Shown: one piece after another, positions 26,733 through 58,971 of the stretch
Layout of the letters: every line of letters begins with the position of its first letter
Position numbering within the stretch: the stretch's first letter is position 1
Origin: an uncultured Clostridia bacterium
Lineage (GTDB): Bacteria > Bacillota > Clostridia > Christensenellales > UBA1242
Length of the DNA stretch: 64,000 nt
Assembly: GCA_945919375.1 (NCBI GenBank)
Contig: CAMEJD010000004.1
Span: forward strand, 27,443-91,442
Direction of reading: 5' to 3'
Notes under the pieces: generated by a model
What the model was told of the DNA's origin: nothing
The model's database searches: none
Seen by the model: the letters and a program-made list of their open reading frames with translations, nothing else
Position numbers and translations under genes: made by a program

Positions 26733-26968
26733 TTATCCACATTTGTACAATATGCATAAATAATCTTTTCTTTTGCACTAATTATATATTTATCCACAGG
26801 GTTTTGTCAATTAACTATTGCCTTTTTATCCACTAAAATATAGAAATGTGGAAAAGTTATCCACATTTCCACATTTGAATATTTATTCATTTTGTTAATT
26901 ATTTATGTATTTTTATAAATTGTATGCAAAATGTGGACAAAAATCTAAAAGTTATCCACATTTCCACA
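26733..26968. promoter_or_regulatory. DnaA-box cluster (4 perfect TTATCCACA boxes plus several 1-2-mismatch boxes)
   Basis: Perfect boxes lie at 26733-26741, 26790-26798, 26857-26865 and 26952-26960. One-mismatch boxes lie at 26826-26834, 26847-26855 (reverse) and 26932-26940 (reverse). The 23-nt string aaaagttatccacatttccacat occurs twice. Confidence 0.8.
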
Positions 26969-37622: not shown

Positions 37623-37819
37623 AATTTTGCTTCCTTTTAATTTAATATTTTTATATCTTTAAATTGTTATATTTATTATATAGAGTGTGAAAATGTGGAT
37701 AACTATTTTTAAACACAATATATAGTTTAACATTTTGACATTTTACTTATTTTATAACAAAATATTGATTTTTTGAAATGTGGACAAGTTGTTAATAAAT
37801 TTTTTAATTTATCCACATA
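37623..37819. other. Candidate oriC segment (dnaA-dnaN intergenic DnaA boxes plus an AT-rich stretch)
   Basis: Perfect DnaA boxes lie at 37694-37702 (reverse) and 37809-37817. A one-mismatch box lies at 37779-37787 (reverse). An extremely AT-rich run spans 37640-37690. This is the canonical Firmicute location. Confidence 0.6.
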
Positions 37820-39371: not shown

Positions 39372-40292
39372 ATGAAGGATAAAACAGTAAGAAGAGTATT
39401 CGTAGTGATAATTATTGCAATATTTTTGATGGCGTTTTACATAGGAATCGCATATGAAGTGGAAAACAAAAAAGTTGAAGTTATTGACACAAGTAATGGA
39501 ACAAAAGATATTGAAGATATAATTTATGATGACCAAAAAACCGATGACCAAGAAAAAAGCGAAGATAATTCAAAACTTGAAGAAGAACCTGTGAAAGTTA
39601 AAACCTATACATCAAGTCAAGGGTTCTCGTGTTTTATGGATGCAATGAAAATTTTAAAAAATGGCAAAGGTTTTGAAATTCAATCAAAGACAACTGGGGT
39701 TGCCGTTGGAGAAACTCAATGGGTTGATGAAACAATTATTATGTCAAAGAATTATTACTACAAAACAAATACTGCATACACAACAATGCCTTCTATGGGG
39801 AAAACTTACTTTAGGTATTTTTACTCAAATGATGGTGGACAAAATATAGAGTACAAAAAGACGAATTCTTTAAATAGTGATAAATCGCCAAATTGGTCAA
39901 GTGGGATTGAACAATGTATGCTAAACAATGAGAATGTGAAAGATTATGATGGCTATGCCCTAAAACCTTTTGCGATTGAACCAACTTCAAAAAAAGAACT
40001 TGTAAGTTTTAATATAACAGATGATAAGTATTATCAAATAACTTTTAAAATAAATAATATTCCAAAAGATTATATTGAGAACATAAAACATGAAGGTGAT
40101 TTAGATTGGGTTAACATTAGCACAATAAATTTGAAATTTTATATAGAAAAAGCAACAATGTATATAAGAAAAGTTGAAAAAAGTGAAGTTTATGATTCCC
40201 AAAAAATAATAAAATTTACTTGCAAAACCAAACAAGTTTCAATAATAAAACAAATTGATAAAGAAATTATTCCACAAAAACCAACAATATAA
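39372..40292 (+). CDS. Hypothetical signal-anchored protein
   Basis: This 306-aa ORF has an N-terminal TM helix (VFVVIIIAIFLMAFYIGIAY) followed by an acidic linker. A candidate promoter upstream reads TTGACA-17-TAGTAT. Confidence 0.6.
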   Translation: MKDKTVRRVFVVIIIAIFLMAFYIGIAYEVENKKVEVIDTSNGTKDIEDIIYDDQKTDDQEKSEDNSKLEEEPVKVKTYTSSQGFSCFMDAMKILKNGKGFEIQSKTTGVAVGETQWVDETIIMSKNYYYKTNTAYTTMPSMGKTYFRYFYSNDGGQNIEYKKTNSLNSDKSPNWSSGIEQCMLNNENVKDYDGYALKPFAIEPTSKKELVSFNITDDKYYQITFKINNIPKDYIENIKHEGDLDWVNISTINLKFYIEKATMYIRKVEKSEVYDSQKIIKFTCKTKQVSIIKQIDKEIIPQKPTI

Positions 40293-40367
40293 GTTAAAAA
40301 TGACAAAAAATGAGAGAGTATAACGGTAAAAAAGTTTTTCAATAAAAAAGAATGTACGCTTGTTGAT

Positions 40368-40801
40368 GTGTATGATGATGACCCAAGTTTTGATTGCGAA
40401 AAGCAATTAAAACAGTGTAAAAACGCTATAAAGAATTATGAAAAATATATAAATGATTTTGAAGCAAGTAATGATATATACAATTCAAAAATGCCACACT
40501 GGTTCAGTATTATTTGTTGTGGTATTATAATTGCATTATCTAGGGGTTTTGCATTTGCCTTGTCAAACATCCCACTTTTTGCAATTGCAATAATAAGTGG
40601 TGTCTTGGGCGAATATATTTAATTAAAAAAGCAAAATTAATAAGAACGATAAAAGAAAACAACGAAAATATTGATCTTTACAAAACTTATAAAAATAGTT
40701 TACTTGAAGAAAAGGAATATTTGGAACTTTTAACTTTTAATAAAACACATAAAGACGTAAAAATTTATAACAAGTTTGAAAAACAAACAGATTTGAAATA
40801 A
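40368..40801 (+). pseudogene. Possible frameshifted small membrane-protein gene
   Basis: An 84-codon ORF with a GTG start ends at 40620-40622. A second frame is open across that stop from 40622 to the TAA at 40799-40801. It encodes plausible sequence (IKKAKLIRTIKENNENIDLYKTYKNSLLEEKEYLELL...). Confidence 0.25.
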
Positions 40802-40900
40802 AGCATCAATAAAAATAAACCAAACAATGATAATATTTTAGGAATATGATAATAACTCTTGAAAATTATGGTAAGATGTATTATAATGTATACAAATTAA

Positions 40901-41461
40901 ATGGAGAATAATATGAGATTAAAAGAATTTGAAAAAATGAATTCACAAGATATGAAAAAAGCAATAAAAATAGTAGAAGAAGAAGGAATAGAAAATTATA
41001 CATCAAAATTGTGTGGAAGTGATTTTACCATATTACCACGTAAAACAGGTTTTATTAGGAAAAAAAGAAAGAATATTTCAATAATATTAAGCGAAGAATG
41101 TGCTCAACAAATTATCAACAGGTCAAAAATGAACAAGTATTTAAGCATTATGAAAGGCGAAAAATATCCTGTAAGATTTGACGAAAACAAAATTTATGCT
41201 TATGAAATTGGAAAAGGCATAAATAAAATAAACGAAGTATACAACGCAAAAAAAGATGATGATAACTTTGATAATCTTGTAAGAGAATTAAATGATGAAC
41301 TTTCAAGAATAGTAACTTTTGATAAAAAAGAAAAAGTTGTAACAGTTAAATTTACAAGTGAAGATATTAGCAAAATTAAAACTATTTTGGCAAAAGTAAA
41401 CATTGCATTAAATTCTGCAAGAAATGAAAAAGCAAAAGAGAACAACGAACAAACACTTTGA
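40901..41461 (+). CDS. Hypothetical protein
   Basis: This is a 186-aa K/E-rich ORF. It is followed by a strong terminator. Confidence 0.55.
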   Translation: MENNMRLKEFEKMNSQDMKKAIKIVEEEGIENYTSKLCGSDFTILPRKTGFIRKKRKNISIILSEECAQQIINRSKMNKYLSIMKGEKYPVRFDENKIYAYEIGKGINKINEVYNAKKDDDNFDNLVRELNDELSRIVTFDKKEKVVTVKFTSEDISKIKTILAKVNIALNSARNEKAKENNEQTL

Positions 41462-41467
41462 TAAAAA

Positions 41468-41503
41468 CAAAAAATATCTACCAAACTTGGTAGATATTTT
41501 TTT
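41468..41503. terminator. Bidirectional intrinsic terminator
   Basis: The stem pairs atatctacc (41474-41482) with ggtagatat (41489-41497). An A-run and a T-run flank it. Confidence 0.7.
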
Positions 41504-41508
41504 GCCGT

Positions 41509-42582
41509 CTAACACATTTCTGCAACTGCATTGTATAAAGTACCAATGCTTGAACTTGAAAATTCTTTAACACAATCCACAAAAGGTTTTTGTGTTGGGA
41601 AGTCTTTTAGATAAGCATCATAATCAAATCTATAAACTCTTACAAGTTTGTCATAGTTGACACTTTTTATTGACTTTTCAAAATTTTCTTTTTCGCCCAT
41701 AAATGCATTGTAAATATTTGACCATTTTTGAAGCATAGGAACTGTTACAGTTGTTTCTTTTGACAAGTTGATATTGTTGTATTTTTCCAAAGTTGAAACA
41801 AATTCATCTTTTTCCAAAAGTTTGTATTCGCCATTAAAACCATTTAGATATTCAATTGAAGATTTTAATGTGGATATTGAACTTTTTAAAACAGCTAAAG
41901 TTTTTTCATTTGTTATTTGAGTTTTTGAAAGGTCAATATATATGCCATTTTCAATATAACTTGTGTGTTTTGGGAAAATGTAATTTTCACAAATATTACT
42001 AAAACTGTCACAAATATCAATAACTTGATTTGTAAGGTCTATATAATCTCTTTTGTAATCTTTTATCAATTGAAGATAAATATCCTTTACCATATCATTT
42101 GCAGGAAAATCTTTTTTGTTGAACTGTTTGTCAATTTCTAAAGACTTACTTGCAAAATCTTGAATATTTGTTGTTGTTGTTTTAAGTTTGTTTGAAAGGT
42201 CTTTATATTTTTCCTTAACTTTTCCTCCAACATCTGATGGTTTTACTGCAAGAATACCTGAAAACTCGGATATAAACTTGAATGAATTTACAAATATTTT
42301 GTCATATATATCAGGAATTTGTGTGTATGAACTTAATTTCTCTTTGTTGCTTTCTGTAACATATCCGGGTTCGGTTTTTATTTTGGATATAATTGTATTG
42401 ACATTTTCGCCACGTTTTATCCCATTTGCATATTCCTCATTTTGACAAATTGTTGTTATAAAAGTTTCAAAATCTTCACTTGTTGTTTTATAAAAATTTG
42501 GGTCATTGTCACAACCATAAAATCCAAAGGATATTACAAATGCTAAACATATTATCATAAAACATTTAATAAATTTTTTCAT
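41509..42582 (-). CDS. Hypothetical exported protein, probable lipoprotein, helical
   Basis: The signal peptide ends in FGFYGC, a non-canonical lipobox. The gene lies 12 nt downstream of 42595..43566. Confidence 0.6.
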   Translation of the reverse strand: MKKFIKCFMIICLAFVISFGFYGCDNDPNFYKTTSEDFETFITTICQNEEYANGIKRGENVNTIISKIKTEPGYVTESNKEKLSSYTQIPDIYDKIFVNSFKFISEFSGILAVKPSDVGGKVKEKYKDLSNKLKTTTTNIQDFASKSLEIDKQFNKKDFPANDMVKDIYLQLIKDYKRDYIDLTNQVIDICDSFSNICENYIFPKHTSYIENGIYIDLSKTQITNEKTLAVLKSSISTLKSSIEYLNGFNGEYKLLEKDEFVSTLEKYNNINLSKETTVTVPMLQKWSNIYNAFMGEKENFEKSIKSVNYDKLVRVYRFDYDAYLKDFPTQKPFVDCVKEFSSSSIGTLYNAVAEMC

Positions 42583-42594
42583 TATGCTCTCCTT

Positions 42595-43566
42595 TTAGCC
42601 TTCCACCAAGAAAAAGTCTTTTAAAAGTGTGTGGGCACTACTTTTTAATTCTTCCGATTCTTGTGAGTTTGCCCAAGCAGTGTATGTGTTGTTTGCCAAA
42701 CTTTCAACACATATTTTTGTATCAATTTTTGTAAAATTGTTTAAAATATTATCAAAAGATTCTTGTGAATTAAAGTAAGTTTTTGATGTGTTTAGTGCCG
42801 AACTTAAAAAATTTGTGAGATTTGTGAGTGATGTTTGAATGTTTGAAATATTGCAATCTTTTTCTGATAAATTTGAAACAAGTTTTTGTTGCCACAAACA
42901 AGACATATTTATAACAAAACCAGAATATCTGTTTGTGCTGAATGTGTTTGTTAGATAATTTTGATATATCACCGAAGCATTAACATAAAAATTTGTTAAA
43001 CTGTTTAGAAAATTAAAGTAATACAAATTATTGTAGTTATCAATTAAATCAATAACTGTTTTATTTGATTTGTTGTCAATATCAATTGTGTAACAGTCCA
43101 AATATGTGTCAATATAATTTTTGCAGTCATTTGCAGATTTTTTTAAATCAATAAAACTGTTTGTCATATTTCTTTGATACTTTAACATTTTTCCGTCATT
43201 GTTTTTTGTAAATATCAAATTGTCTAACATCTTGGTGTCAATTGTTGAATAAAGGTTATATATTTTTAAAACCTGTTCAATTATTTTTCCCCTTTCACCA
43301 ATTGAATTTTTAAAAGCTTCATCTTGTTCTCTGTCTTCACAAGTGACTATATATTGATAAATATTTGTGTTATAAGATATAACTTCGTTGATGCTTTCAT
43401 CTGTTTTATAATCATAAAAATTATTATAAGGTGCATTCATATCAACTTTTGGGCTAAATAAGAAATATAACCCAATGCCAGCACCAATTATTGCAAAAAC
43501 AATTAAGATTGAAAGTAATGCTTTTTTGTTTATAAAAGAATTCTTTGCCATATGCTCTCCTATCAA
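42595..43566 (-). CDS. Hypothetical signal-anchored extracytoplasmic protein
   Basis: The N-terminal TM helix is ALLSILIVFAIIGAGIGLYFLF. The body of the protein is N/Y/T-rich. Confidence 0.6.
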   Translation of the reverse strand: MIGEHMAKNSFINKKALLSILIVFAIIGAGIGLYFLFSPKVDMNAPYNNFYDYKTDESINEVISYNTNIYQYIVTCEDREQDEAFKNSIGERGKIIEQVLKIYNLYSTIDTKMLDNLIFTKNNDGKMLKYQRNMTNSFIDLKKSANDCKNYIDTYLDCYTIDIDNKSNKTVIDLIDNYNNLYYFNFLNSLTNFYVNASVIYQNYLTNTFSTNRYSGFVINMSCLWQQKLVSNLSEKDCNISNIQTSLTNLTNFLSSALNTSKTYFNSQESFDNILNNFTKIDTKICVESLANNTYTAWANSQESEELKSSAHTLLKDFFLVEG

Positions 43567-43647
43567 GATAATTTTAACACAATTATATCAATAAAGCAAT
43601 AGTACTAAAATAAAAAATTGCCCCCAAAAAAGGACAATTTTTGATTG

Positions 43648-44658
43648 TTATTTTGCAATTGTTTCACAATTCTTGTTTGCGTTTAAATCGTTTAGCAAAT
43701 CTTTTTTTATTGATTCAGTTATCATAGTTACATAATTTTTGTAAGAAAGTGGAATCTTTACACCCATTTTTTCAACATTTTTTATTGCTTTTTTAATATT
43801 AAAATTGTTTATTGTGTTTGATAAAATTAACTTTGCATTTGGGGTTTTGTTTGCAAAATCTATAATATCTTTTTTAATGACATCATATTTTTTCTTATCG
43901 CTTTTGTTATAAGGCTTAACAGAAAATACAATATCAACTTTGTTATATAAGGACTTTATCAAATCAAAATCAACATTTTCATAAAACAAGTTCATTGCAG
44001 GTAAAGCATTTGCCAAAAATGAAAACTCATTATCAAATACAGGTGCCGGTTTTAGTTGATACATACCTTTGTTGAGCAAAAAGAAAACATTTCCGGCATG
44101 TCTATCTGTTTGCATTGTCAAAAAATCAAAAATTGCAAGTTTGTATAAATGTGTAAGAGATTTGCTGATATTTATATTATATCCACTATTTTTTAAAATT
44201 TTTAAAACGTGATAGTAATCATAAAGTGAGTTTTTTCTATCTTTTGAGTATGCCGAATATTTTATTTCGGCAGCACTTTTAAGTTGTTCATTCCCTTTTG
44301 CAACATTATAAGAAATAATACCATTTGTGCCATTTATTGTTGCTGGCTCGCAGGTCGCACAATCAAGACCGATTTGTTTGCAAAGTTCCATACACAAAAG
44401 TTCGTTTACAATTCTTGCAGGTTTTGTAATTTTTTGTGCATCAAAAGATTTGAATATGGCATCTTTGCCATTTACCTTAAACCAGTAATTACCATAAGTT
44501 TTTGTTGATATGCCAACAAAGTTAGTTGTATTATATTCGCTTCTAAATTTTTTTGGCGATTTGTCCAAAATAACACCAGTGGCAAGTTTTATATTTTCAT
44601 ATCTTCCAATATTTTTTATTATTGGATTAAACTCGGTTTTTAATGTTGCTGTGTCCAT
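43648..44658 (-). CDS. HipA_C / PI3-PI4-kinase-like atypical kinase (paralog family, member 2)
   Basis: The motifs are AIFKSF, RIVNELLCMELCKQIG, TMQTDRHAGNVFFL and PAPVFDNEFSF. Confidence 0.6.
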   Translation of the reverse strand: MDTATLKTEFNPIIKNIGRYENIKLATGVILDKSPKKFRSEYNTTNFVGISTKTYGNYWFKVNGKDAIFKSFDAQKITKPARIVNELLCMELCKQIGLDCATCEPATINGTNGIISYNVAKGNEQLKSAAEIKYSAYSKDRKNSLYDYYHVLKILKNSGYNINISKSLTHLYKLAIFDFLTMQTDRHAGNVFFLLNKGMYQLKPAPVFDNEFSFLANALPAMNLFYENVDFDLIKSLYNKVDIVFSVKPYNKSDKKKYDVIKKDIIDFANKTPNAKLILSNTINNFNIKKAIKNVEKMGVKIPLSYKNYVTMITESIKKDLLNDLNANKNCETIAK

Positions 44659-44670
44659 AAAAAATTCCTT

Positions 44671-45675
44671 TTATAATTTTTGAATTAAGTATTTTTCCTT
44701 ATTGTTTAATATTTTTTTAAGGGTTTCAATTGTACGCCTAAATTCCTTTACACTTTCACAGGTTATCATTGTAATCAAATCCTTGTAGTCATTGGAAATG
44801 GTAATGCCCATATTTTCAACATTTTTTATTGCTGTTTGTATATCAATTTTGTCAAGTGTTTTGATAAGGATTTTTTTTGCGTCTTGGTTTTTGCTTGCAA
44901 AAATAACCAAATCATTTTTTATTGTATCATATTTTTCTTTTCCACTTTCAATTTTGTTAACAAGAAGCAAATTCCTACTTGTACTAAATAAACTTTTTGC
45001 AATATTAAAATCTATTTCTCTATAGTCTTGTACGGTATTATCAAGATTAAATGAACAAAAAGCAAACTCGTTGTCAAAAATTGGCGAAAGCCTTATTTCA
45101 TTTGTTTTTGTGTTTTCAATAAACTGAATATTTTCTGAATGCCTATCTGTGTGAAGCAATAATTCATCAATAAGGCATATTTGATATAATTTTAAAGTTT
45201 CTTTCCTTATATTGATTTTATAGCCTTTGGACTTTAATATCTTTAATGCATTGTAATAAGATTTTAAGGTATTGTTATATTCATAGTCGCCTGCTTTATG
45301 TTTTAATTTAGAGCCGGTTATTAGTTTTTCATCTTTTCCCAAAACATTATAGGAAGCAATGCCACTTATTCCGTCTAAGGAAGCAAGTTTACATTTTGCA
45401 CAATCAATTTCAACTTGCTTTGAAATTTCATAAAACAAAAGTTCGTTTACAATTCTGTTTAGTTTTGTGTTTTTCATACATTCAAAAGACTTGAAAATAA
45501 CCTTGTCTTCACCCAAATAATACCAATAATTACCAAAGTGTCTTGATGAAATACCTGTTCTTGGGTCTTCCCTTTTAGTTCTTTTTTTGTTGTCAATAAC
45601 AATACCGGGGGAAAGTTTTATATCCCCAAATTTGTCAAGATTTTTTAAGATTGGTTTATACTCACAATTTTGCAT
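44671..45675 (-). CDS. HipA_C / PI3-PI4-kinase-like atypical kinase (paralog family, member 1)
   Basis: The motifs are VIFKSF, RIVNELLFYEISKQV, LLHTDRHSENIQFI and SPIFDNEFAF. Confidence 0.6.
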   Translation of the reverse strand: MQNCEYKPILKNLDKFGDIKLSPGIVIDNKKRTKREDPRTGISSRHFGNYWYYLGEDKVIFKSFECMKNTKLNRIVNELLFYEISKQVEIDCAKCKLASLDGISGIASYNVLGKDEKLITGSKLKHKAGDYEYNNTLKSYYNALKILKSKGYKINIRKETLKLYQICLIDELLLHTDRHSENIQFIENTKTNEIRLSPIFDNEFAFCSFNLDNTVQDYREIDFNIAKSLFSTSRNLLLVNKIESGKEKYDTIKNDLVIFASKNQDAKKILIKTLDKIDIQTAIKNVENMGITISNDYKDLITMITCESVKEFRRTIETLKKILNNKEKYLIQKL

Positions 45676-45756
45676 ATTTACCTTACAAAATTAGTATATC
45701 ACAAGCAAAAAAATTGTCAATATAGTATATATACTAACAAACTTACAAAATATAAG

Positions 45757-45871: not shown

Positions 45872-46012
45872 ATGGCAATGAAAAGAACATATCAACCAAA
45901 AAAGAGAAGAAGACAAAGTGTTCATGGCTTTAGAGAAAGAATGAGTACAAAAAGTGGTAGAAATGTTTTGAAACGTCGCAGAAACAGAGGTAGAAAAGTT
46001 TTGGCAGCGTAA
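45872..46012 (+). CDS. rpmH: 50S ribosomal protein L34
   Basis: It is below the ORF-track size cutoff. AGGAGG lies 9 nt upstream. The translation is [46 protein letters not shown]. Confidence 0.95.
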
Positions 46013-46021
46013 AGGAGCATT

Positions 46022-46369
46022 ATGATTAAAAGCATAAATCGCCTTAGAAAAAACAAACACTTTAAGTATGTTTATAAGCATGGAGAAACAAAAGGTTACA
46101 AACTTTTATTATTAACTTTTGTAAAATCAAAGATAAGCGAACCAAAAGTTGGTTTCAGCGTTTCAAAAAAGATTGGCAAAAGTGTTGTAAGAAACAAAGT
46201 GAAAAGAAGGCTTAGGTCTGCTTTTTGTGAACTATACCCAAATATAAAGAAAAACTATAACTATATTTTTTCTGCAAAACAAGGCATAGAAGAACTTTCC
46301 TTTGTTGAGATAAAAGATAATATGAAACAACTTTTTGTAAAAAATGGTTTGTATGAAGAAAATAATTAA
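46022..46369 (+). CDS. rnpA: Ribonuclease P protein component
   Basis: The 115-aa basic protein contains VGFSVSKKIGKSVVRNKVKRRLR. It lies directly after rpmH. Confidence 0.92.
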   Translation: MIKSINRLRKNKHFKYVYKHGETKGYKLLLLTFVKSKISEPKVGFSVSKKIGKSVVRNKVKRRLRSAFCELYPNIKKNYNYIFSAKQGIEELSFVEIKDNMKQLFVKNGLYEENN

Positions 46370-46628
46370 AATTATATTTTTCCCAATAGAAATTATTTTT
46401 TTATTTCTTATATACCTATACAAATGGTGTATATCTCCACTGCTACCAAAAACTTGCAGGTTTTATCCGTCATGCTCAACTTATGCAGTGATGGCGATAA
46501 AAGAGTTTGGCATATTTAAAGGAATATGTTTGGCAATTTCAAGGATATGTAGGTGTCGCCCAAACGGAAAATATGGGTTTGACCCAATACCACAAAATAT
46601 CAAGGGAGATAGTAAATGGATAGTATAA
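46344..46628 (+). CDS. yidD: Membrane protein insertion efficiency factor YidD
   Basis: The signature is CRFYPSCSTYAVMAIKEFG...CRCRPNGKYGFDPIP. The likely start is the MKKIIK ATG at 46353. Confidence 0.9.
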   Translation: MVCMKKIIKIIFFPIEIIFLFLIYLYKWCISPLLPKTCRFYPSCSTYAVMAIKEFGIFKGICLAISRICRCRPNGKYGFDPIPQNIKGDSKWIV

Positions 46629-47812
46629 TTAGTGGCCTACTTGCCACCATGCCAACTGGTCTTTGGGAAAAGATTATTGTTGCATTTGAAAATGCTTTTG
46701 GTTCATTTGCTCTTTCAATTATTGTGCTTACAGTTATCATTAAATTGATTATGTCACCTATTGACTTTTTCAATAGAAGAACAAACAAAAAAATGGCAAC
46801 TATGCAACAAAAAATTCAAGGGCAAGTTGAAGCAATAAACAAAAAATATGCAAATGACAGCAAAACAAAAAACCAAAAACTTGGCGAACTCTACCAAAGA
46901 GAAAAAATCAATCCAATTAGTTCGTGTTTGACAATGCTTATCAATCTTGGTTTAACTTTTGCAATATTTATTACTTTGCTTAATGGTATGAATGCAATGG
47001 CTTCATACAAAATTACAACCGAATTTGAAACATTACAACAAGAATATGTTTTAAGTTATGTAACTGAGACTTATTCAAAAAACATATATGAAGAAGTTAA
47101 AGCAAACCCCGACAAGTCGGTGTATGAAATTTGCAAACCATATATTGACGAAATGAATGCAATAGAAAACGAAGAAACAAAAAACGGAGTTTTGGCTATT
47201 GCAAATGAAAATGTGGCAAAAAAACATAAAGAAATCAAAGAGAGTTTTTTGTGGATAGACAATATTTGGATTGCAGATAGTCCATTCCAAAATTCAATTC
47301 CGTCTTTTGATAGTTTTGCAGGGACTGCAAAACTTACAAAAGACCAAAAAACTGATGAATACAAACAAATGTATGAACAAATAATGAATCCTCTTCGTGA
47401 AACAAACGGAAGAGCTAACGGATACTTTATTTTGCTTATACTATGTGCAGGGCTTTCATTTTTGAACCAATGGCTCATGATGAAAAAACAAAAGCAAGAA
47501 AACCCACAAGCACCGGCAAACAAAGCAATGCTTGTTATTATGCCAATATTTATGGGAATATTTACTTTGTTCTACACAACAATGTTTGCATTATATCTTG
47601 TGTCCTCGCAAGTTGTAAGTATTGCTCTTACTCCACTAATCAACTTAATAAGTGACAAGTGTGACAAAAGGCAACAAGCAAAAAAAGACGACAAGCTGTC
47701 TTTGAAAAGAATGGAAAGAGTTATAACAATAAAAGAAGAAAACGCTCAACCAAAAGAAAGCAAAAAAAGTAATAAAAACAAAAAATCCGATGACGAATTA
47801 AAAAAGATTTAA
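46616..47812 (+). CDS. yidC: Membrane protein insertase YidC/Oxa1 family
   Basis: It has multiple TM segments, a MATMQQKIQ...LGELYQREKINP motif and a basic C-terminal tail. The synteny is conserved. Confidence 0.9.
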   Translation: MDSIISGLLATMPTGLWEKIIVAFENAFGSFALSIIVLTVIIKLIMSPIDFFNRRTNKKMATMQQKIQGQVEAINKKYANDSKTKNQKLGELYQREKINPISSCLTMLINLGLTFAIFITLLNGMNAMASYKITTEFETLQQEYVLSYVTETYSKNIYEEVKANPDKSVYEICKPYIDEMNAIENEETKNGVLAIANENVAKKHKEIKESFLWIDNIWIADSPFQNSIPSFDSFAGTAKLTKDQKTDEYKQMYEQIMNPLRETNGRANGYFILLILCAGLSFLNQWLMMKKQKQENPQAPANKAMLVIMPIFMGIFTLFYTTMFALYLVSSQVVSIALTPLINLISDKCDKRQQAKKDDKLSLKRMERVITIKEENAQPKESKKSNKNKKSDDELKKI

Positions 47813-48636
47813 TGGAGGGAATTATGTTAAGTGTTGAAGCAACAGGCAAAAACATTGAACAAGCAATAGAAAATGCCCTATTTGAACTAAAAGCGCCAAG
47901 AGAAGATGTTGAAATAAAAATATTGGAACAAGGTGGCTTTTTCAAAAAAGCAAAAGTATTAGTTTCAATTTCGCCAGAAGAAGTTGAAAAATACGAAAAG
48001 AGAGATAAACAAAGAGAAGAACTAGCAAAAAAACCTTCTTTTGAAGAAGAAAAGGAAGAAAAAGTTAGTTCAATTATTCCAACAAAAGAAGAACTTGAAG
48101 AACAACCAATCGAAAAAGAAAAGGATGTTGAAGAAGAAGTTGAAACAATCACATCAAAAGTGAAAGAAGACAAAAAAGAAAAAACTTTGCCAGATGCAAA
48201 GAAAGCAGAAATTTTTGTCAAAGGACTTTTGAATAAAGTTAGTTTAACTGCTGACCTTGAAATAAAAGAAACCGAAGATGAAGTGTTTATCAATATTCTA
48301 GGTTCAAGTGATTTGATTGGTTATCGTGGCGAAGGACTTAATGCCCTTCAATACTTGACAAGTGTTTATGTTGGAAAGAATAACAGACACGCAAAGAAAA
48401 TAAGAATTGATTGCGATAATTATCGTGCAAGAAGAGAAGAATCTTTAATCGCACTTGCAAATCGTATGGCAAAAAAAGTTGAGAGAACACATCAAAGTGT
48501 AAAACTTGAGCCAATGACTGCAAATGAAAGAAGAATTATTCACACTGCCCTTGCAGATAATGAATATGTTGAAACATATTCAAAAGGTGAAGAACCACAC
48601 AGATATTTAATTATTAAACCAAAAGAAAATAATTAA
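47812..48636 (+). CDS. jag: Jag/KhpB RNA-binding protein (Jag_N, KH, R3H)
   Basis: The N-terminus is VEATGKNIEQAIENAL. The R3H region is LEPMTANERRIIHTALAD. It lies directly after yidC with a 1-nt overlap. Confidence 0.9.
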   Translation: MEGIMLSVEATGKNIEQAIENALFELKAPREDVEIKILEQGGFFKKAKVLVSISPEEVEKYEKRDKQREELAKKPSFEEEKEEKVSSIIPTKEELEEQPIEKEKDVEEEVETITSKVKEDKKEKTLPDAKKAEIFVKGLLNKVSLTADLEIKETEDEVFINILGSSDLIGYRGEGLNALQYLTSVYVGKNNRHAKKIRIDCDNYRARREESLIALANRMAKKVERTHQSVKLEPMTANERRIIHTALADNEYVETYSKGEEPHRYLIIKPKENN

Positions 48637-48640
48637 CAAA

Positions 48641-48671
48641 AAGACTCACATATTTTATGTGAGTTTTTTTG
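48641..48671 (+). terminator. Intrinsic terminator after jag
   Basis: The stem pairs actcacat (48644-48651) with atgtgagt (48657-48664). A run of seven T follows. Confidence 0.75.
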
Positions 48672-48677
48672 TGAATA

Positions 48678-48706
48678 TTGACACAAATGCTCAAAAGTGG
48701 TAGCAT
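48678..48706 (+). promoter_or_regulatory. Candidate promoter for the second kinase-like gene pair
   Basis: TTGACA (48678-48683) is followed by a 17-nt spacer and TAGCAT (48701-48706). A GGAG sequence lies upstream of the TTG start at 48724. Confidence 0.4.
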
Positions 48707-48723
48707 AATTACGGAGAAAGATT

Positions 48724-49701
48724 TTGTTAAAAAACACATATAAGTATGGGTATATAAAACTTGCGAAAGGAATAAATTTGGCGGACATAAAAACCAAGTA
48801 TAGATTTTTTGGTAAGATTGGAATAAGTACGGCAGACTTTGGCAAAAAATGGTATTGCTTGCCAAATGGAAAAGGTATTTTTAAAACTTTTAATGGTATT
48901 TCTTATTTTACCATAAGAGAAAATAGAATAATTAACGAGTTTATTTGCGCTGAACTTTGCAAACAAGTTGGTATTTCCGCTCCAAAACTTGAGCCAGCAA
49001 CACTAAACAACATTAGTGGACTTATTTCTTATAATGTTATTTCAAACAAGCACCAAAAACTTTTAACGGCAGAAGAATTGTTTAACAAACTAGACTATCC
49101 TATATCAAATGAACTTGTTGATTTTAAAGCAGCATTTAATATATTAAGGAGTAAAAATTATAATATTGATGTAAAAAAATCAACATTGGACATATATAGA
49201 ATTGCAGTGTTTGACACTATAACAATGCAAACTGATAGACATATAAACAACATATTCTTTTTGATTGACAAAAAAACAAAAGAAGTTAAAGTTGCTCCAC
49301 TTATTGACAATGAATTTGCTTTTTTTGGTCAAGGAATTAAAAAGGTTATTAAAGACAAACAAACTGATATAAAAGAAGATATAATGCCTAATTATGTCAA
49401 GTTTGCAAAAATTATTCAAACATCAAGGAATATGAAACCTTTTGAGTATGATGCTCCAGAAAAGAACATTGTAGATTGTGCTCTATCCCACAGAGGATTT
49501 AATGTTGTTTTAAAGGATGTGTTAAAAAAACTTGACCCACAAAGTGCAATTGAAAATGTAAGAAAACTTGGGTATAAAATTCCTGACGAATATGAAGAAT
49601 ACATCACTGAAATTATTAACACAACAAGAAACATAACAATAAAAGAATATCAAAAGCAACTTAAAGAAAGACATCTTGAAGATGACGAAATTTGTAAGTA
49701 G
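48724..49701 (+). CDS. HipA_C / PI3-PI4-kinase-like atypical kinase (paralog family, member 3)
   Basis: It has a TTG start. The motifs are GIFKTF, RIINEFICAELCKQVG, TMQTDRHINNIFFL and VAPLIDNEFAF. Confidence 0.6.
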   Translation: MLKNTYKYGYIKLAKGINLADIKTKYRFFGKIGISTADFGKKWYCLPNGKGIFKTFNGISYFTIRENRIINEFICAELCKQVGISAPKLEPATLNNISGLISYNVISNKHQKLLTAEELFNKLDYPISNELVDFKAAFNILRSKNYNIDVKKSTLDIYRIAVFDTITMQTDRHINNIFFLIDKKTKEVKVAPLIDNEFAFFGQGIKKVIKDKQTDIKEDIMPNYVKFAKIIQTSRNMKPFEYDAPEKNIVDCALSHRGFNVVLKDVLKKLDPQSAIENVRKLGYKIPDEYEEYITEIINTTRNITIKEYQKQLKERHLEDDEICK

Positions 49702-49710
49702 GAGACATTC

Positions 49711-50697
49711 ATGAAAACAATTTTAAAGAACACAGAAAAATATAGCAACATAAAATTGGCAAAAGGTTTGCTCCTTGACGATTCAAAAACAATAAAACGT
49801 GCTGGTGAATGTGGTGTTTCAACAGGAAAATATGGACTTAGATGGTTTTGTTTGCCAAAAGGTAAAGCAATATTCAAAACATATGACGGTATATTTTGTT
49901 TTGATATAAGACAAAATAGAATTATAAATGAATTGGTTTGCAAAGAACTTTGTAATCAAGTTGGCATAGAATGCCCTGAAATTGAGCCTGCAAGCAAAAA
50001 TGGTGTTGAGGGAATTGTGTCATATAATGTTGCAAAAAACGGGAAAAAACTTATCAATGCAATAAGGCTTGGTAATATGGCACACTTTAATAGTTTTTCA
50101 AATTCCATTGAGGACTATGCTTATATGGTTGATGAACTTGAAGCATATGGCTACAAAATTGATAAGCAAAAATTTGTTGAGGATATGTACAAAATTTGCA
50201 TTTTTGATTTCATCACAATGCAAACGGATAGACACGAATGTAATATGTTTTTTATAAAGTACCCAAAAACAAGAGAAATAACAGTCGCCCCACTTATTGA
50301 CAATGAGTTTGCGTTTTGTGGGAAAAAACTAATTTCATATATAAGCAAAAGATATATAAACATTGACGAAGACATAAAAAAGACATATCAAATGTTTGCA
50401 AACCATATGACAGTAAAAAGCAATTTTGGTTCTGATTTTGATACTATGGCAACAGAAATAGTTAATCTTGCAAAAAATGACAAAAATTTTGACAAAATAC
50501 TAAAAAATATAATAGATAAATTAGATATAAAAAATGCAATAAAAAATGTTGAAAAAATGGGTTATGAAATTTCGCCAGAATACAAAGAATATCTTGCAGA
50601 AATAGTAGAATGTTCAACAAAATATATATTAAATAAATATAAAGAAATAAAGCCAAATAAATCAAAATATAACCAAGAATATGAATTATTATATTAA
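49711..50697 (+). CDS. HipA_C / PI3-PI4-kinase-like atypical kinase (paralog family, member 4)
   Basis: The motifs are AIFKTY, RIINELVCKELCNQVG, TMQTDRHECNMFFI and VAPLIDNEFAF. A GGAG sequence lies upstream of the start. Confidence 0.6.
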   Translation: MKTILKNTEKYSNIKLAKGLLLDDSKTIKRAGECGVSTGKYGLRWFCLPKGKAIFKTYDGIFCFDIRQNRIINELVCKELCNQVGIECPEIEPASKNGVEGIVSYNVAKNGKKLINAIRLGNMAHFNSFSNSIEDYAYMVDELEAYGYKIDKQKFVEDMYKICIFDFITMQTDRHECNMFFIKYPKTREITVAPLIDNEFAFCGKKLISYISKRYINIDEDIKKTYQMFANHMTVKSNFGSDFDTMATEIVNLAKNDKNFDKILKNIIDKLDIKNAIKNVEKMGYEISPEYKEYLAEIVECSTKYILNKYKEIKPNKSKYNQEYELLY

Positions 50698-50752: not shown

Positions 50753-52087
50753 TTATTTTCCCAAACAAAATTTTGAGAATATTGCAGTTAATATATCATC
50801 CGTTGCATTTTCACCTGTTATTTTTCCAAGTTCAAGCCAAACTCGTTTTGCTTCCATATCAACCAAATCGGCAGTACCTGTTTTTGCAACTTCAATTGCA
50901 TTGTTTGTAAGGTCAATTGCTGTTTTTATAATTTCAATGTGCCTTTTGTTTGTAAGATAAACTTGCGAAAAGTCAATTTTATTAAGCCTTGCCATTTCAA
51001 TTATACGATCTTTTATCTCGTCAATATTTTTGTTTTCGTTTGCACAAACATAAACGGCATTATCAATTTTTGTAACAATCTTTTTGTCGGTTTTGTTTAA
51101 TACATAAATAACATTTTTGTCTTTAACAAGATCAAGAAGTTTGTTATCTTCGTCATCAAGTGGTTCACTTGAATCAAACACACATAAAACTATATCACTA
51201 TTTTTTATTGCGTTTATTGACCTATCTACACCAATTTTTTCAACTACATCGTCACTTTCTCTAATTCCGGCAGTGTCAATAAAATTGATTTTAAAACCTT
51301 TATACGAAATTGTTTCCTTTAAAATATCTCTTGTTGTGCCTTTTATGTCGGTTACAATTGCTCTATCTTCACCAAGCAAGCAATTAAGCAAACTAGATTT
51401 GCCAACATTTGGTTTGCCTACAATTGAAACATTTATTCCAAACTTTATTTGCTCACCTGTTTTTGCAGTTTTTAATAGATTATTCAAAATGTCTCTTGAA
51501 GAAATTAAGACATTTTGAACATCTTTGATTGACATTTCTTCGTCATCGTGTTCTGGATAGTCAAGGGCAACTTCCAAATTTACCAAGCAGTCTTTTATTT
51601 TGTTTTGAATATCAACAACTTGCTTTTTAAGTTTTCCATCGGCAAGCAAACTTGATGCCTTAATTTCGGCATCGCTTGTTGCATTTATCATATCAATTGT
51701 TGCTTCGGCTTCATCAAGTGACATTTTCCCATTCATAAATGCTCTTTTTGAAAATTCCCCATTTTCTGCAAGTTTACAACCGGAAATAACTAACTTATCC
51801 AAAATTTTTGTTGCCAAAAATTCCCCACCATGAATTTGAAATTCAACAACATCTTCACCGGTAAAGGAAAAAGGTGCTTTAAAATATACCATCATACAAC
51901 GTTCTTTTGCATCTTCGTTAATTTTAAATTTCCCAAGATATAACTTTCGTGGTTCAATATTCTCTTTTGTTAAATTTTTTGATGAAAAAAGGTCAAAGGC
52001 AATATCTTTTGCCTTGTCACCACTCATTCTTATTATTGCAATCCCGCCACTGCCAAGTGGTGTTGATATTTGTGCTATTGTTTCCAT
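50753..52087 (-). CDS. mnmE: tRNA modification GTPase MnmE
   Basis: The N-terminus is IAQISTPLGSGGIAIIRMSG, the G1 motif is GKPNVGKSSLLN, and the C-terminus is FCLGK. Confidence 0.93.
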   Translation of the reverse strand: METIAQISTPLGSGGIAIIRMSGDKAKDIAFDLFSSKNLTKENIEPRKLYLGKFKINEDAKERCMMVYFKAPFSFTGEDVVEFQIHGGEFLATKILDKLVISGCKLAENGEFSKRAFMNGKMSLDEAEATIDMINATSDAEIKASSLLADGKLKKQVVDIQNKIKDCLVNLEVALDYPEHDDEEMSIKDVQNVLISSRDILNNLLKTAKTGEQIKFGINVSIVGKPNVGKSSLLNCLLGEDRAIVTDIKGTTRDILKETISYKGFKINFIDTAGIRESDDVVEKIGVDRSINAIKNSDIVLCVFDSSEPLDDEDNKLLDLVKDKNVIYVLNKTDKKIVTKIDNAVYVCANENKNIDEIKDRIIEMARLNKIDFSQVYLTNKRHIEIIKTAIDLTNNAIEVAKTGTADLVDMEAKRVWLELGKITGENATDDILTAIFSKFCLGK

Positions 52088-56194: not shown

Positions 56195-56896
56195 ATGGAA
56201 CAAATATTAAAAGAACTTTTTGAGAAATATAATCTAGAATACGACGATTCAAAAATTGCACAAATTATTAAATTTTATGACATGGTTATTGAAACAAATA
56301 AAGTTATGAATTTGACAAATATCACAGAAGAAAAGGAATTTGCCATAAAAAATATTTTGGACTGCATTTTGCCTATGAAAATTATTCCGGTAAATTCAAA
56401 AGTTTTAGATATTGGAGCAGGTGCAGGATTTCCTTCAATTCCACTAAAAATTATGCGTCCCGACCTTGATATTGTTATGGTGGACAGTTTAAACAAAAGA
56501 GTTAATTTTTTAAAAACCGTTATTCAAAAACTTGATTTAAAAAATATTACTGCAAATCATATGAGAATTGAGGACTTTGCGGTGAACAATAAGGAAAGGT
56601 TTGATATTGTTGTCGCTCGTGCAGTTGCAAGATTGAACACATTGCTTGAATATTCGCTTCCGCTTGTAAAAATCAAAGGAAAAGTAATCGCTTATAAAAG
56701 TCAAAAGGCGGAAGAAGAAATTGCCGAAGCACAAAATGCTCTTAATATTTTGGGTGGAAAAGTTACCGAACTTCAAACTGTTTTAATTAAGGAAATTGAC
56801 AGTATAAGAGTTAATATAGTCATTGAAAAGATAAAAAATACTCCAAAAGAATATCCAAGGGGGAAAAATCTTCCAAAATTAAAACCAATTATATAA
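56195..56896 (+). CDS. rsmG: 16S rRNA (guanine527-N7)-methyltransferase RsmG
   Basis: The SAM motif is VLDIGAGAGFPSIPLKI. The gene lies upstream of parAB. Confidence 0.9.
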   Translation: MEQILKELFEKYNLEYDDSKIAQIIKFYDMVIETNKVMNLTNITEEKEFAIKNILDCILPMKIIPVNSKVLDIGAGAGFPSIPLKIMRPDLDIVMVDSLNKRVNFLKTVIQKLDLKNITANHMRIEDFAVNNKERFDIVVARAVARLNTLLEYSLPLVKIKGKVIAYKSQKAEEEIAEAQNALNILGGKVTELQTVLIKEIDSIRVNIVIEKIKNTPKEYPRGKNLPKLKPII

Positions 56897-56977
56897 AAAA
56901 TTATCATTATAAAGTCAAAATAATATATAATGATTGATTTTTTTTGATATTATGATATAATAAATTAAGAGGTTATT

Positions 56978-57799
56978 ATGGGAAAAATAATTGCTTTCGC
57001 CAATCAAAAGGGTGGTGTTGGCAAAACTACAACCTGTATAAATGTTGCTGCATATATTGCCGCAATGGGGAAAAAGGTTTTGCTAATTGATATGGATCCC
57101 CAAGGGAACACTACAAGTGGCGTTGGAATTGATAAATCTAACAAAGAATTAAAAACTCTTTATAATGTAATTAACAAAGATGTAATAGTTGATGAAGCAA
57201 TATATCCAACTTGTGTTGAGGATTTGGATATAATCCCAGCAACAGTAGATTTGGCTGGCGCTGAAATTGACCTTGTTCAAATGCATTCAAGAGAACATGT
57301 TGTAAAAAATGCATTGGCAAGAGTAAAAAATAAATATGATTTTATATTTATCGACTGCCCACCATCATTAGGTCTATTGACTGTAAATGCCCTAACTGCT
57401 GCAGATTCCGTTATAATTCCAATTCAATGTCAGTTCTATGCATTGGAAGGCTTAACACAATTGATGAACACAATAAAACTTATTATTCATCACCTAAACC
57501 CTGACCTAAAAATTGAAGGCGTTGTCCTTACAATGAAGGACAATCGCTCAAATCTTGTTCAACAAGTTAGTGATGAAGTTAAAAAATTCTTTAATAAAAA
57601 GGTATTTGATACATATATTCCACAGAATATAAGGCTTGCCGAAGCACCAAGCCATGGACTGCCAATTATGCTGTATGATACAAATTCAAAAGGTGCAAAT
57701 GCATATCAAAGTTTGGCAGAAGAAATATTGGAAAGGAATAATCAAAGTTATAAAAAAATAACTAAATCGACAAAATTTAAAGTAAGGAGTGAACAATAA
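56978..57799 (+). CDS. parA: ParA/Soj chromosome-partitioning ATPase
   Basis: The deviant Walker A motif is ANQKGGVGKTTT. The segment DCPPSLGLLTVNAL is also present. Confidence 0.93.
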   Translation: MGKIIAFANQKGGVGKTTTCINVAAYIAAMGKKVLLIDMDPQGNTTSGVGIDKSNKELKTLYNVINKDVIVDEAIYPTCVEDLDIIPATVDLAGAEIDLVQMHSREHVVKNALARVKNKYDFIFIDCPPSLGLLTVNALTAADSVIIPIQCQFYALEGLTQLMNTIKLIIHHLNPDLKIEGVVLTMKDNRSNLVQQVSDEVKKFFNKKVFDTYIPQNIRLAEAPSHGLPIMLYDTNSKGANAYQSLAEEILERNNQSYKKITKSTKFKVRSEQ

Positions 57800-58788
57800 T
57801 GGCACAAAAGAAAATGGGACTTGGTAAAGGTCTTGGGGCTTTGTTATCAATATATGATGAAGAAGTTGATGATTTGGAAAGTGACAATAAAAAACCTGTA
57901 GCGCAAGAGAAAAAAGAGCAAGAAACAACAATTGTTGAAGGTACAAAAGTTAAAGGTGGAGTTGAGGAAATTCCTGTAAGCGAAATAAGACCAAATCCAA
58001 ACCAACCAAGAAAGAATTTTGATCCGGAAGCATTAAACGAACTTGCAAATTCGATTAAAACACATGGTATTATACAACCTATTGTTGTAAACAAAGATAA
58101 AACTGGATATATGATTATCGCCGGTGAAAGAAGATGGCGCGCATCAAAAATTGCAGGGCTTGATACCGTTCCATGTGTTGTAAAGAACTACACTGAACGA
58201 CAAATAAAAGAAATTTCAATCATAGAAAACTTGCAAAGAGAAGATTTGAATCCTATTGAAGCAGCAAGAGCAATTAAACAACTTATGGATGAATATAATT
58301 TCACGCAAGAAACTGTTGCTGACAGAATTGGCATTTCAAGACCAAATATTGCAAATACTTTAAGACTTTTGGCATTGTGCCCTGAAGTTATTGCAATGGT
58401 AGAACAAGGAAAATTGAGTGCTGGTCATGCAAGATGTTTGGTTGTTATAACCGACCCAAAAGTTCAACAAAAGTTTGCAGTTGCTGCAAGTAATGGTAAA
58501 GTTACTGTAAGAGAACTTGAAAAATTAGTAAAATCATACCTTAATCCAAAGGGTAGCACAAAAAATAAGCCACCAGAACAAAGTATGGAACTTAAAGAAC
58601 TTATAAATGAAATGCAAAGAGTATTCTCAACAAAAGTTTCGGCAATTGGTAGTGATAGAAAAGGTAGAATATACATAGACTATTATTCAAGAGATGATTT
58701 GGATAGAATTGCTGAATTGTTGGAACTATTAAAAACAAAAACTTTAACACTAAAAGATTTGAGTAATTTTAATAAAAAGGTTCAATAA
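57799..58788 (+). CDS. parB: ParB/Spo0J chromosome-partitioning protein
   Basis: The motifs are GLGKGLGALL, IRPNPNQPRKNFD and the GERRWRA box. An HTH segment (TQETVADRIGISRPNIANTLRLL) is present. The gene has a 1-nt overlap with parA. Confidence 0.93.
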   Translation: MAQKKMGLGKGLGALLSIYDEEVDDLESDNKKPVAQEKKEQETTIVEGTKVKGGVEEIPVSEIRPNPNQPRKNFDPEALNELANSIKTHGIIQPIVVNKDKTGYMIIAGERRWRASKIAGLDTVPCVVKNYTERQIKEISIIENLQREDLNPIEAARAIKQLMDEYNFTQETVADRIGISRPNIANTLRLLALCPEVIAMVEQGKLSAGHARCLVVITDPKVQQKFAVAASNGKVTVRELEKLVKSYLNPKGSTKNKPPEQSMELKELINEMQRVFSTKVSAIGSDRKGRIYIDYYSRDDLDRIAELLELLKTKTLTLKDLSNFNKKVQ

Positions 58789-58852: not shown

Positions 58853-58971
58853 TTATCCACATTCGGTTGAACAAAATTTATAAAAATAGGCAAAATTTAC
58901 CAAAAATGGGGACTAAAAAATGTCGTTTTATCCACATTTTGAGGTATAAATGTGGATAACTGTGTGGATAA
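58853..58971. promoter_or_regulatory. DnaA-box cluster (4 perfect boxes within 119 bp)
   Basis: TTATCCACA occurs at 58853-58861 and 58928-58936. TGTGGATAA occurs at 58951-58959 and 58963-58971. Confidence 0.8.

Follow-up and report, generated by a model that had tools for sequence, protein, structure and literature searches.

Bacterial Hip kinases are classified by the context of their antitoxins, and ten gene organisations have been described (PMC8262856). The two-gene candidate PDC-M03, a HipA protein plus a HIRAN protein (PMC13245101), is equivalent to hipIN in the scheme of Gerdes et al. (PMC8262856), and the CtkA protein of Helicobacter pylori has been described as a Ser/Thr kinase (PMC5536186). 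The subject of this report is a set of four HipA/CtkA-like kinase genes (K1 to K4) in a stretch of 64,000 nucleotides (nt) from an uncultured Clostridia bacterium (contig CAMEJD010000004.1), referred to below as the window. The genes form two pairs, K1-K2 and K3-K4, on either side of the rpmH-jag operon and beside dnaA; K2 and K1 are transcribed away from rpmH, and K3 and K4 come after jag. Downstream of K2 are the genes for two exported proteins, E1 and E2.

An earlier note on this DNA had described K1, K2, E1 and E2 as one operon-like block, and its four minus-strand open reading frames (ORFs) were all found at the positions it gave (Table 1). The block is, however, best explained as two adjacent transcription units and not one system. 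The four kinases are very probably orphan members of the HipA/CtkA family encoded in two operons to which the exported pair does not belong.

Family and predicted fold of the kinases

K1 and K2 are paralogs with 41% identity over 312 amino acids (aa; tblastn E-value 2e-73), and their genes are 12 nt apart, as the earlier note had reported. K3 and K4, which it had overlooked, surfaced in the same tblastn search; they are 9 nt apart and 33–40% identical to K1 and K2 (E 1e-47 to 1e-61). The Pfam model HipA_C (PF07804, gathering score 30.5) matches K2 at 41.0 bits and K1 at 34.3 bits, while K3 (27.7) and K4 (26.6) fall just under the threshold but are clear paralogs of K1 and K2 nonetheless. Precomputed Pfam annotation already tags the protein family as HipA_C. 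The best family-level model for all four is PADLOC PDC-M03A, with up to 64 bits and E-values from 3e-18 (K1) to 2e-13 (K3). No usable match came from NCBIfam, where the YjjJ model scored 14.7 bits against a cut-off of 401. The PI3_PI4_kinase model (PF00454) was matched by K4 only, at 17.2 bits and under its gathering score of 27.1, and a weak Fam20C match was also present in the Pfam scan.

The structure of K2 was modelled with AlphaFold2 (predicted local distance difference test score, pLDDT, 75; predicted template-modelling score, pTM, 0.80). A Foldseek search with this model returned CtkA (3akj) as the top match (E 9e-8), with a target-normalised template-modelling (TM) score of 0.70 (0.6–0.7 among the CtkA matches), followed by HipA (3dnv, 2wiu, 3tpv) and then HipT (7ab3-5, 7vkb, 8ezr). 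CtkA, HipA and HipT were all matched with a probability of 1.00 and E-values of 9e-8 to 1e-3. PI3K, PI4K-II (PI4K2) and CotH ranked far lower, with TM-scores of about 0.25–0.35 for PI3K and PI4K. A single-sequence search of the PDB with K2 gave nothing meaningful, and CtkA was reached only with a 100-sequence profile. This profile of relatives matched CtkA with an E-value of 1.8e-8 across the kinase core and C-terminal helices, and the Legionella HipT with 2.6e-4. In the profile alignment the DRHxxN motif of the family lies over D155-R-H-N-G-N of CtkA and D-M-H-L-K-N of HipT, and D209 lies over D179 of CtkA. The profile searches and the AlphaFold–Foldseek comparison thus reveal significant similarity to the HipA fold and place the kinases in the HipA superfamily. 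The 'HipA/PI3-4K-like' label of the earlier note holds for its HipA part, while the kinship to PI3K/PI4K is only remote.

A library-wide profile search, clustered at 50% identity, returned 114 clusters at E<1e-30, 311 at E<1e-10 and 1391 at E<1e-3, and nearly all of the best matches are 310–370 aa long. The family appears to be small and confined mainly to uncultured low-GC gut Clostridia.

A mobile-element origin of the kinases was also considered and is unsupported. No relatives were found on viral contigs (viral-contig scan) or on plasmids, the one weak match in a phage-genome search was a HipA-domain protein of a C. difficile phage (29% identity over 44% of the query), and a fold search of BFVD returned distant PI3K-like or fusion proteins only.

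Catalytic residues and absence of antitoxin-like partners

In K2 numbering, the kinase motifs are IFK70SF, RIVN85E86LL, TD185RH187xxN190 and PxFD209NEF. Among 100 relatives of 25–40% identity, E86, D185 and E211 are invariant, and F69, K70, R82, N85, D178, Q183, R186, N190, D209, N210, F214 and Y306 are at least 90% conserved; H187 is replaced by Asn in one subclade. The catalytic set is intact in all 31 core-family copies from the fetched loci (31/31), K1–K4 included. The motifs noted earlier are therefore conserved among orthologs and not due to chance, and the assignments of the Lys, DRHxxN and DNE elements stand, although the helix Glu is E86 and not E91. Because the catalytic set is retained in all copies, the kinases look active, judged by sequence, and none looks like a pseudokinase. 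Ser51, in a G49-x-S51 loop, is present in all full-length core members except one. The possibility that one kinase of a pair is a pseudokinase acting as antitoxin was rejected, as every copy retains the catalytic set.

The N-subdomain of HipA (Couple_hipA) has no Pfam match in K1–K4 at E-values up to 1, and the segment ahead of the Gly-rich loop is only about 45 residues long. Models for helix-turn-helix (HTH), HipS and HIRAN domains had no matches among the flanking genes (Pfam, NCBIfam, PADLOC). In a scan of the neighbours rather than the whole genome, E1, E2 and the genes at 39372-40292 and 40901-41461 (X306 and X186 below) likewise had no matches in Pfam, NCBIfam, PADLOC or PHROGs. No small ORF upstream of K1 is credible; the sequence there is solely the divergent rpmH promoter region, and no hipS or hipB ORF lies upstream of K1 or between jag and K3. 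On this point, the description of K1 and K2 as kinases with neither a HipA N-terminal domain nor an adjacent HTH or antitoxin-like gene was accurate.

Two weakly related HipA-like kinases were seen at other loci, one (L019, 9518-10860) followed by a 106-aa ORF and the other (L017, 9902-11465) by a 137-aa ORF. The 106-aa product matches the size expected of a HipS-like partner and is a candidate by that measure. Both loci look like classical short Hip modules, unlike the family in the window.

Transcription units

The earlier note had placed the two kinases and the two exported proteins in a single operon, a view at odds with the K2-E1 gap. The stop codon of K2 is followed in order by a hairpin with a T-run, a promoter-like sequence (TTGCTT-17-TAAAAT) and the ribosome-binding site of E1. 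The hairpin is present in four relatives (L001, L007, L008 and L042), in which the K2-E1 spacer is 89% conserved, exceeding the flanking proteins. The promoter-like site is also largely kept in these relatives, with a last hexamer of TAAACT in three of the four.

Transcripts were represented by assembled, unstranded contigs from four pig-gut metatranscriptomes (X8, X24, X25 and X26). All six genes (K1–K4, E1 and E2) have RNA coverage, and contigs bridge K1-K2, E1-E2 (one contig) and K3-K4. Within the K2/E1 gap, none of the contigs from these four data sets crosses positions 43547-43571: the contig that covers K1 extends from 43572 to 45673, the latter also being the point at which the X8 and X25 contigs end, and the E1 contigs begin at or below 43546. 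A contig from X2 does cross this interval at similar depth; the library type of X2 is not recorded, and the contig is contiguous like DNA. The relative depth of the two gene pairs flips between runs, with K1-K2 at 18 and E1-E2 at 8–10 in X8, and 8–10 and 17, respectively, in X25. On the other side of the rpmH-jag operon, contigs from X24, X25 and X26 end at 48589-48617, near the jag terminator, and the depth over K3-K4 is lower, whereas a single X8 contig spans rpmH to K4. These data are read as three units, K1-K2, E1-E2 and K3-K4, the last with some read-through from jag. A hairpin and promoter-like site in a gap that is unbridged in these RNA data, together with the separate occurrence of E1-E2 and kinases in other genomes (see below), argue against one four-gene operon or system.

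Conservation of gene order in related genomes

The nearest genomes are metagenome-assembled genomes of uncultured Clostridia, one of which carries the label Christensenella sp. UBA5893. Related loci were collected with a 25-sequence alignment. A genus-level clade, consisting of the window, L001 (identical to L009), L007, L008 with L010, L042 and L046, keeps the order dnaA / X306 / X186 / E2-E1 / kinase(s) / rpmH...jag / kinases / mnmE. In L046, a sister lineage, a single kinase lies upstream of E1, with no hairpin between them.

Outside this clade, the two gene sets occur apart. More distant relatives carry E1-E2 without kinases, alongside X306-like genes (L038, L040), and others carry kinases without E1-E2 (L012-L016, L023, L044, L045). 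It is thus the position after jag, and not the company of the exported proteins, that is conserved for the kinases. Their copy number at this position varies between one (L016, L023), two (L011, separated from jag by two uncharacterised genes) and three (L045, in tandem at 5850-8993). Other members of the family are found after rsgA-rpe (L012, 8373-14821; L015, 3228-7112), next to rpoBC (L014), or beginning 8 nt after scpA-scpB (L044, 8001-8975, 26% identical). In L015, rsgA comes straight after rlmN, with neither a Hanks kinase nor a phosphatase in between, and downstream of the L012 kinase lie genes for two paralogous exported proteins with GLUG motifs, of about 620 aa each. None of the distant members in housekeeping contexts (L011, L012, L014-L016, L023, L044, L045) has an HTH, HipS or HIRAN neighbour. 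A further distant member (L025, 110-1201; ERZ808240, coverage 14.2), 28% identical to K2, comes from the same sample and has the same coverage as a UBA5893-like contig, making it probable that these genomes carry additional, more divergent kinase copies elsewhere. With high confidence, the kinases represent a lineage-specific expansion that has been fixed vertically beside the origin.

The exported pair E1-E2

E1 has a hydrophobic N-terminal anchor, as had been predicted, but its start is probably the ATG at 43551, which has a GGAGAG ribosome-binding site and gives a protein of 318 aa, rather than the TTG at 43566 assumed previously. The gene call in L001 is also 318 aa. The identification of E2 as a probable lipoprotein is strengthened by its lipobox, in which Gly23-Cys24 does not vary among 10 homologs; the E2 family comprises 10 clusters only. 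The AlphaFold2 model of E2 is an all-alpha bundle (pLDDT 87.5), and a Foldseek search of the PDB with it gave no significant match (best E 0.09). E1 is always accompanied by E2 in relatives, and no kinship was detectable among E1, E2 and X306. E1 and E2 look like lineage-specific envelope proteins.

The 306-aa membrane-anchored protein X306 (39372-40292) and the 186-aa protein X186 (40901-41461) travel with E1-E2, including in lineages without the kinases. The set lies beside dnaA in L040, L041 and L046 and away from dnaA in L038, and L040 carries three tandem copies of the 306-aa gene.

Evolutionary rates

The window was compared with three relatives. The housekeeping neighbours (dnaA, dnaN, rnpA, jag, mnmE) are 95–99% identical, with nonsynonymous substitution rates (dN) of 0.003–0.03 and ratios to the synonymous rate (dN/dS) of 0.007–0.06. 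The kinases are 54–91% identical, with dN of 0.04–0.34 and dN/dS of 0.08–0.22, and so evolve about 10 times faster than these neighbours; their dN/dS values indicate purifying selection and hence functional genes. E1 is 67–72% identical (dN/dS 0.26–0.34) and E2 78–90% identical.

Between the window and L007, K3 has a dS of 1.57, far above that of the adjacent jag (0.28) and of rnpA (0.015), which points to replacement by a deeply diverged allele and not only to faster drift. In a neighbour-joining tree, K2 and K3 each fall into two allele classes that are differently combined among the genomes. Variation is concentrated at residues 126-170 and 216-262 of K2 and in the C-terminal helices, and the Gly-loop/Lys region and catalytic core are conserved.

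Proposed function and alternative explanations

Ser150 of HipA is the precedent for autophosphorylation in the Gly-rich loop. K1-K2 and K3-K4 are very probably bicistronic operons of single-domain, cytoplasmic, predicted Ser/Thr protein kinases belonging to a CtkA-like branch of the HipA superfamily. By homology to HipA, HipT and CtkA, Lys70 and Glu86 would hold ATP, Asp185 would act as catalytic base, and Asn190 and Asp209 would bind Mg2+. Gly49-x-Ser51 is the putative Gly-rich loop, and autophosphorylation of Ser51 may be an intrinsic off-switch, by analogy with HipA Ser150 and the HipT serines (PMC8262856). Such a switch could stand in for the missing HipB, HipS or HIRAN antitoxin and permit constitutive expression. 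If the kinases are active and expressed without an antitoxin, and the metatranscriptomes suggest expression, then some other control is to be expected, whether self-inactivation, regulation by a paralog or a non-toxic substrate. The four paralogs appear to differ mainly in substrate-facing segments and so probably have distinct targets or triggers. The likeliest target would be a translation-related protein, leading to conditional growth arrest, by analogy with every characterised bacterial Hip kinase. E1-E2 would be an independently transcribed envelope pair that belongs with X306 to another origin-proximal gene set.

Three features favour a role in growth arrest or conflict: the family is of the toxin type, the kinases resemble PDC-M03A, and alleles and copy number turn over fast in substrate-facing regions. 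The speed of this turnover suggests a conflict-driven trigger such as phage. Confidence in this role is low. The full explanation, orphan CtkA-like kinases with self-limitation and a growth-arrest or conflict role, and the exported pair separate, is held with about even confidence.

Several observations weigh against this explanation. Kinase activity and autophosphorylation are matters that we infer from homology only; the N-terminal 60 residues of the K2 model, including the putative Gly-rich loop, have low confidence (pLDDT 30–68), and the alignment of this loop to HipA Ser150 and HipT Ser57/59 was made by Pfam register and visual inspection, not by structural alignment. The RNA contigs are unstranded, of low depth (2–30x), and could include DNA. 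It is unusual for a growth-arrest toxin to be fixed within a core housekeeping operon and to be expressed at levels like those of its neighbours, and the retention of the place beside jag across long divergence suits a housekeeping role no less well than conflict. The adjacency of kinase, E1 and E2 is kept within the genus-level clade and the hairpin is absent in L046, so a functional link between them may exist.

The main rival to the growth-arrest or conflict role is that the kinases perform housekeeping signalling, phosphorylating products of their own operons (such as Jag/KhpB, RsgA, ribosome or cell-elongation factors) and filling in this lineage the place of the PASTA/Hanks kinases StkP/PrkC of other Firmicutes. 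The repeated finding of kinases after jag, rsgA-rpe and scpAB hints at such a role: a kinase follows jag even where Jag is only 59–70% identical to that of the window (L011, L016, L023), and L045 has the same order. The rsgA-rpe operon of B. subtilis carries prpC-prkC, and it is after rsgA-rpe that other family members lie, with rlmN and rsgA of L015 directly adjacent and no Hanks kinase between them. The kinases are under purifying selection and expressed, one X8 RNA contig covers rpmH through K4, and in S. pneumoniae StkP phosphorylates Jag/EloR on Thr89 (PMC6403258). A divergence about 10 times faster than that of Jag and a copy number of one to three are nevertheless atypical of a core regulator, three of the four RNA runs break at the jag terminator with lower depth over K3-K4, and the scanned window genes include no phosphatase gene. 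Housekeeping signalling is accordingly rated unlikely, and its most specific form, in which antitoxin-less kinases fixed in the rpmH-yidC-jag operon and after rsgA-rpe and scpAB act on Jag/KhpB or ribosome-assembly factors and replace the PASTA/Hanks pathway, distinctly unlikely.

That the genes are a classical toxin-antitoxin module, with the adjacent paralog kinase or E1/E2 as an unrecognised antitoxin, is very unlikely. In its favour, every chromosomal Hip kinase characterised so far is a toxin linked to an antitoxin (PMC8262856), the pairs are tight (12 and 9 nt), and the adjacency of kinase, E1 and E2 is retained in the clade; yet many genes of the family stand alone, lacking both a partner and E1/E2, and both members of each pair have complete catalytic residues. 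E1-E2 have a putative promoter of their own and occur elsewhere without kinases, and as membrane-anchored or exported proteins they would hardly be in a position to neutralise a kinase in the cytoplasm. That E1-E2 are separate from the kinases, both phylogenetically and transcriptionally, bears equally on the proposal that these are lipid or small-molecule kinases with PI3K/PI4K-like chemistry, acting at the membrane with E1 and E2. The DRHxxN loop does have the PI3K/PI4K form, there are weak matches to PF00454, Fam20C and, by Foldseek, to PI4K2 and PI3K, and envelope proteins are encoded next door. However, CtkA, described as a Ser/Thr kinase (PMC5536186), also has a DRHxGN loop, the PF00454 score is below its cut-off, target-normalised TM-scores are about 0.3 for PI3K/PI4K against 0.6–0.7 for CtkA, and the kinases have no membrane-binding segment, which makes lipid or small-molecule kinase activity of this kind highly improbable. 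Closer in sequence and fold is CtkA itself, the nearest solved relative, and a gut-dwelling organism with fast-evolving kinases might be thought to use them as secreted, host-directed effectors. This is scarcely credible for proteins with no signal peptide and no type IV secretion system (T4SS) or integrative and conjugative element (ICE) context, with C-termini that do not carry the charged KRRR-type signal needed by CtkA (PMC5536186), and with genes embedded in core operons.

If the kinases are active and expressed without an antitoxin, the known range of the HipA fold in bacteria would extend past toxin-antitoxin modules and the CtkA effector. If the signalling explanation were true instead, a 'toxin' fold would have been turned into a core regulator with rapidly diversifying paralogs. 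As the family comprises only about 114 clusters (50% identity, E<1e-30) and appears mainly limited to gut Clostridia, the impact would be moderate unless a link to Jag or the ribosome is real.

Gene content of the window

The window is chromosomal core DNA surrounding the replication origin, with a G+C content of about 30%, and near-identical DNA is present in pig-gut metagenomes. In addition to the features in Table 1, it includes addAB, metG and uvrC.

Table 1. Genes and predicted transcription signals around the kinase loci (window positions).
Feature	Position	Strand	Basis
K1, 334-aa HipA/CtkA-like kinase, first gene of K1-K2 operon	44671-45675	-	ORF, HipA_C, PDC-M03A
K2, 336-aa HipA/CtkA-like kinase	43648-44658	-	ORF, HipA_C, AlphaFold2 model and Foldseek
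K3, 325-aa kinase paralog, TTG start, directly 3' of jag	48724-49701	+	ORF, tblastn, PDC-M03A
K4, 328-aa kinase paralog	49711-50697	+	ORF, tblastn
E1, 318-aa protein, N-terminal membrane anchor, no known domain	42595-43551	-	ORF; ATG start preferred
E2, 357-aa all-alpha probable lipoprotein	41509-42582	-	ORF, lipobox, AlphaFold2
Promoter-like site of sigma-70 type for K1-K2, TTGACA-16-TATACT with TG	45693-45720	-	Scan, 11/12 matches; consensus match only
Terminator-like hairpin and T-run after K2	43605-43642	-	Fold -13.1 kcal/mol, z -4.35
Promoter-like site for E1-E2, TTGCTT-17-TAAAAT preceded by TG	43571-43599	-	Read from sequence
Hairpin terminator after E2, common with convergent gene 40901-41461	41469-41502	-	Fold -17.7 kcal/mol, z -6.7
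Hairpin and T7 terminator after jag	48644-48671	+	Fold -19.6 kcal/mol, z -7.9
Promoter-like site for K3-K4, TTGACA-17-TAGCAT with TG	48678-48706	+	Sequence
dnaN and dnaA	36510-39181	-	Window ORFs
rpmH-rnpA-yidD-yidC-jag housekeeping operon	45872-48636	+	ORFs; Pfam families of L001 orthologs
mnmE	50753-52087	-	Window ORFs
rsmG, parA and parB	56195-58788		Window genes near origin

Perfect DnaA boxes (TTATCCACA) form three clusters, at 26733-26960 upstream of metG, at 37694-37817 in the dnaN-dnaA spacer and at 58853-58971 after parB. The dnaA-rpmH interval, with the kinase and exported-protein genes, contains no cluster of perfect boxes. A contig from metatranscriptome X8 fuses position 40327 to 40824, indicating a strain variant that is shorter by 496 bp (40328-40823) and lacks a small ORF (40368-40622). 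At 13209-15642, a 324-aa HTH_3 protein gene overlaps the start of a gene for a 491-aa protein with HD_4 and TGS domains, the latter protein having no match to the RelA_SpoT synthetase domain.

Comparison with known systems

CtkA (JHP0940; PDB 3AKJ/3AKK/3AKL) is the best PDB match to the kinases of the window by both profile and fold. Like them it is a single domain, of about 325 aa, with a DRHxxN loop and an (A)PxFD Mg-binding motif, and has neither N-subdomain-1 nor an antitoxin. The structural-alignment identity is, however, only about 14–16%, and CtkA, encoded on the tfs3 ICE, needs both a T4SS and a charged signal at its C-terminus (PMC5536186). The window genes belong instead to the chromosomal core: their neighbours are dnaA, rpmH, yidC, jag and mnmE, no ICE or T4SS lies near them, and K1 to K4 end in ...ETIAK, ...LIQKL, ...DEICK and ...YELLY, without such a signal.

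Among the Hip types, K1–K4 fit the PDC-M03A model of hipIN (HipI-HipN) better than Pfam HipA_C and share with that type a short, core-kinase-only protein with the Gly-rich loop near the N-terminus (PMC8262856). PDC-M03/hipIN requires a second gene, HIRAN (HipS-HIRAN) (PMC13245101, PMC8262856), which no scanned neighbour matches. HipT of HipBST (E. coli O127, Legionella Lpg2370) is similarly short (about 310–340 aa), lacks N-subdomain-1 and is matched in fold with a probability of 1.00. It has conserved Ser residues beside its Gly-rich loop that undergo autophosphorylation, and its gene is preceded by hipB and hipS, the latter encoding the antitoxin (PMC8262856). Neither gene is present at the window locus, and the catalytic loop of HipT is DxHxKN in place of the DRHxxN of K1–K4. 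HipH/YjjJ is monocistronic with no separate antitoxin gene (PMC8262856) and resembles K1–K4 in this respect, but its N-terminus is extended by about 100 aa that include an HTH domain, for which a role in cis has been proposed; K1–K4 show no HTH match. HipA of hipBA (E. coli K-12) shares the kinase fold and the set of catalytic residues; it differs in its length of 440 aa with N-subdomain-1 and in the adjacent HTH antitoxin HipB with its operator, both lacking in K1–K4.

Searches of the literature on CtkA with HipA, orphan HipA-like kinases and PDC-M03 turned up nothing on the gene arrangement seen here. The earlier note had not recognised the combination as a described system, a judgement that applies to the arrangement, which lies outside the ten Hip organisations (PMC8262856), but not to the protein family, which was already known. 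What is new is the occurrence of tandem, partner-less, single-domain kinases flanking the rpmH-jag operon, an arrangement distinct from all ten of those organisations and unlike the ICE/T4SS setting of CtkA.

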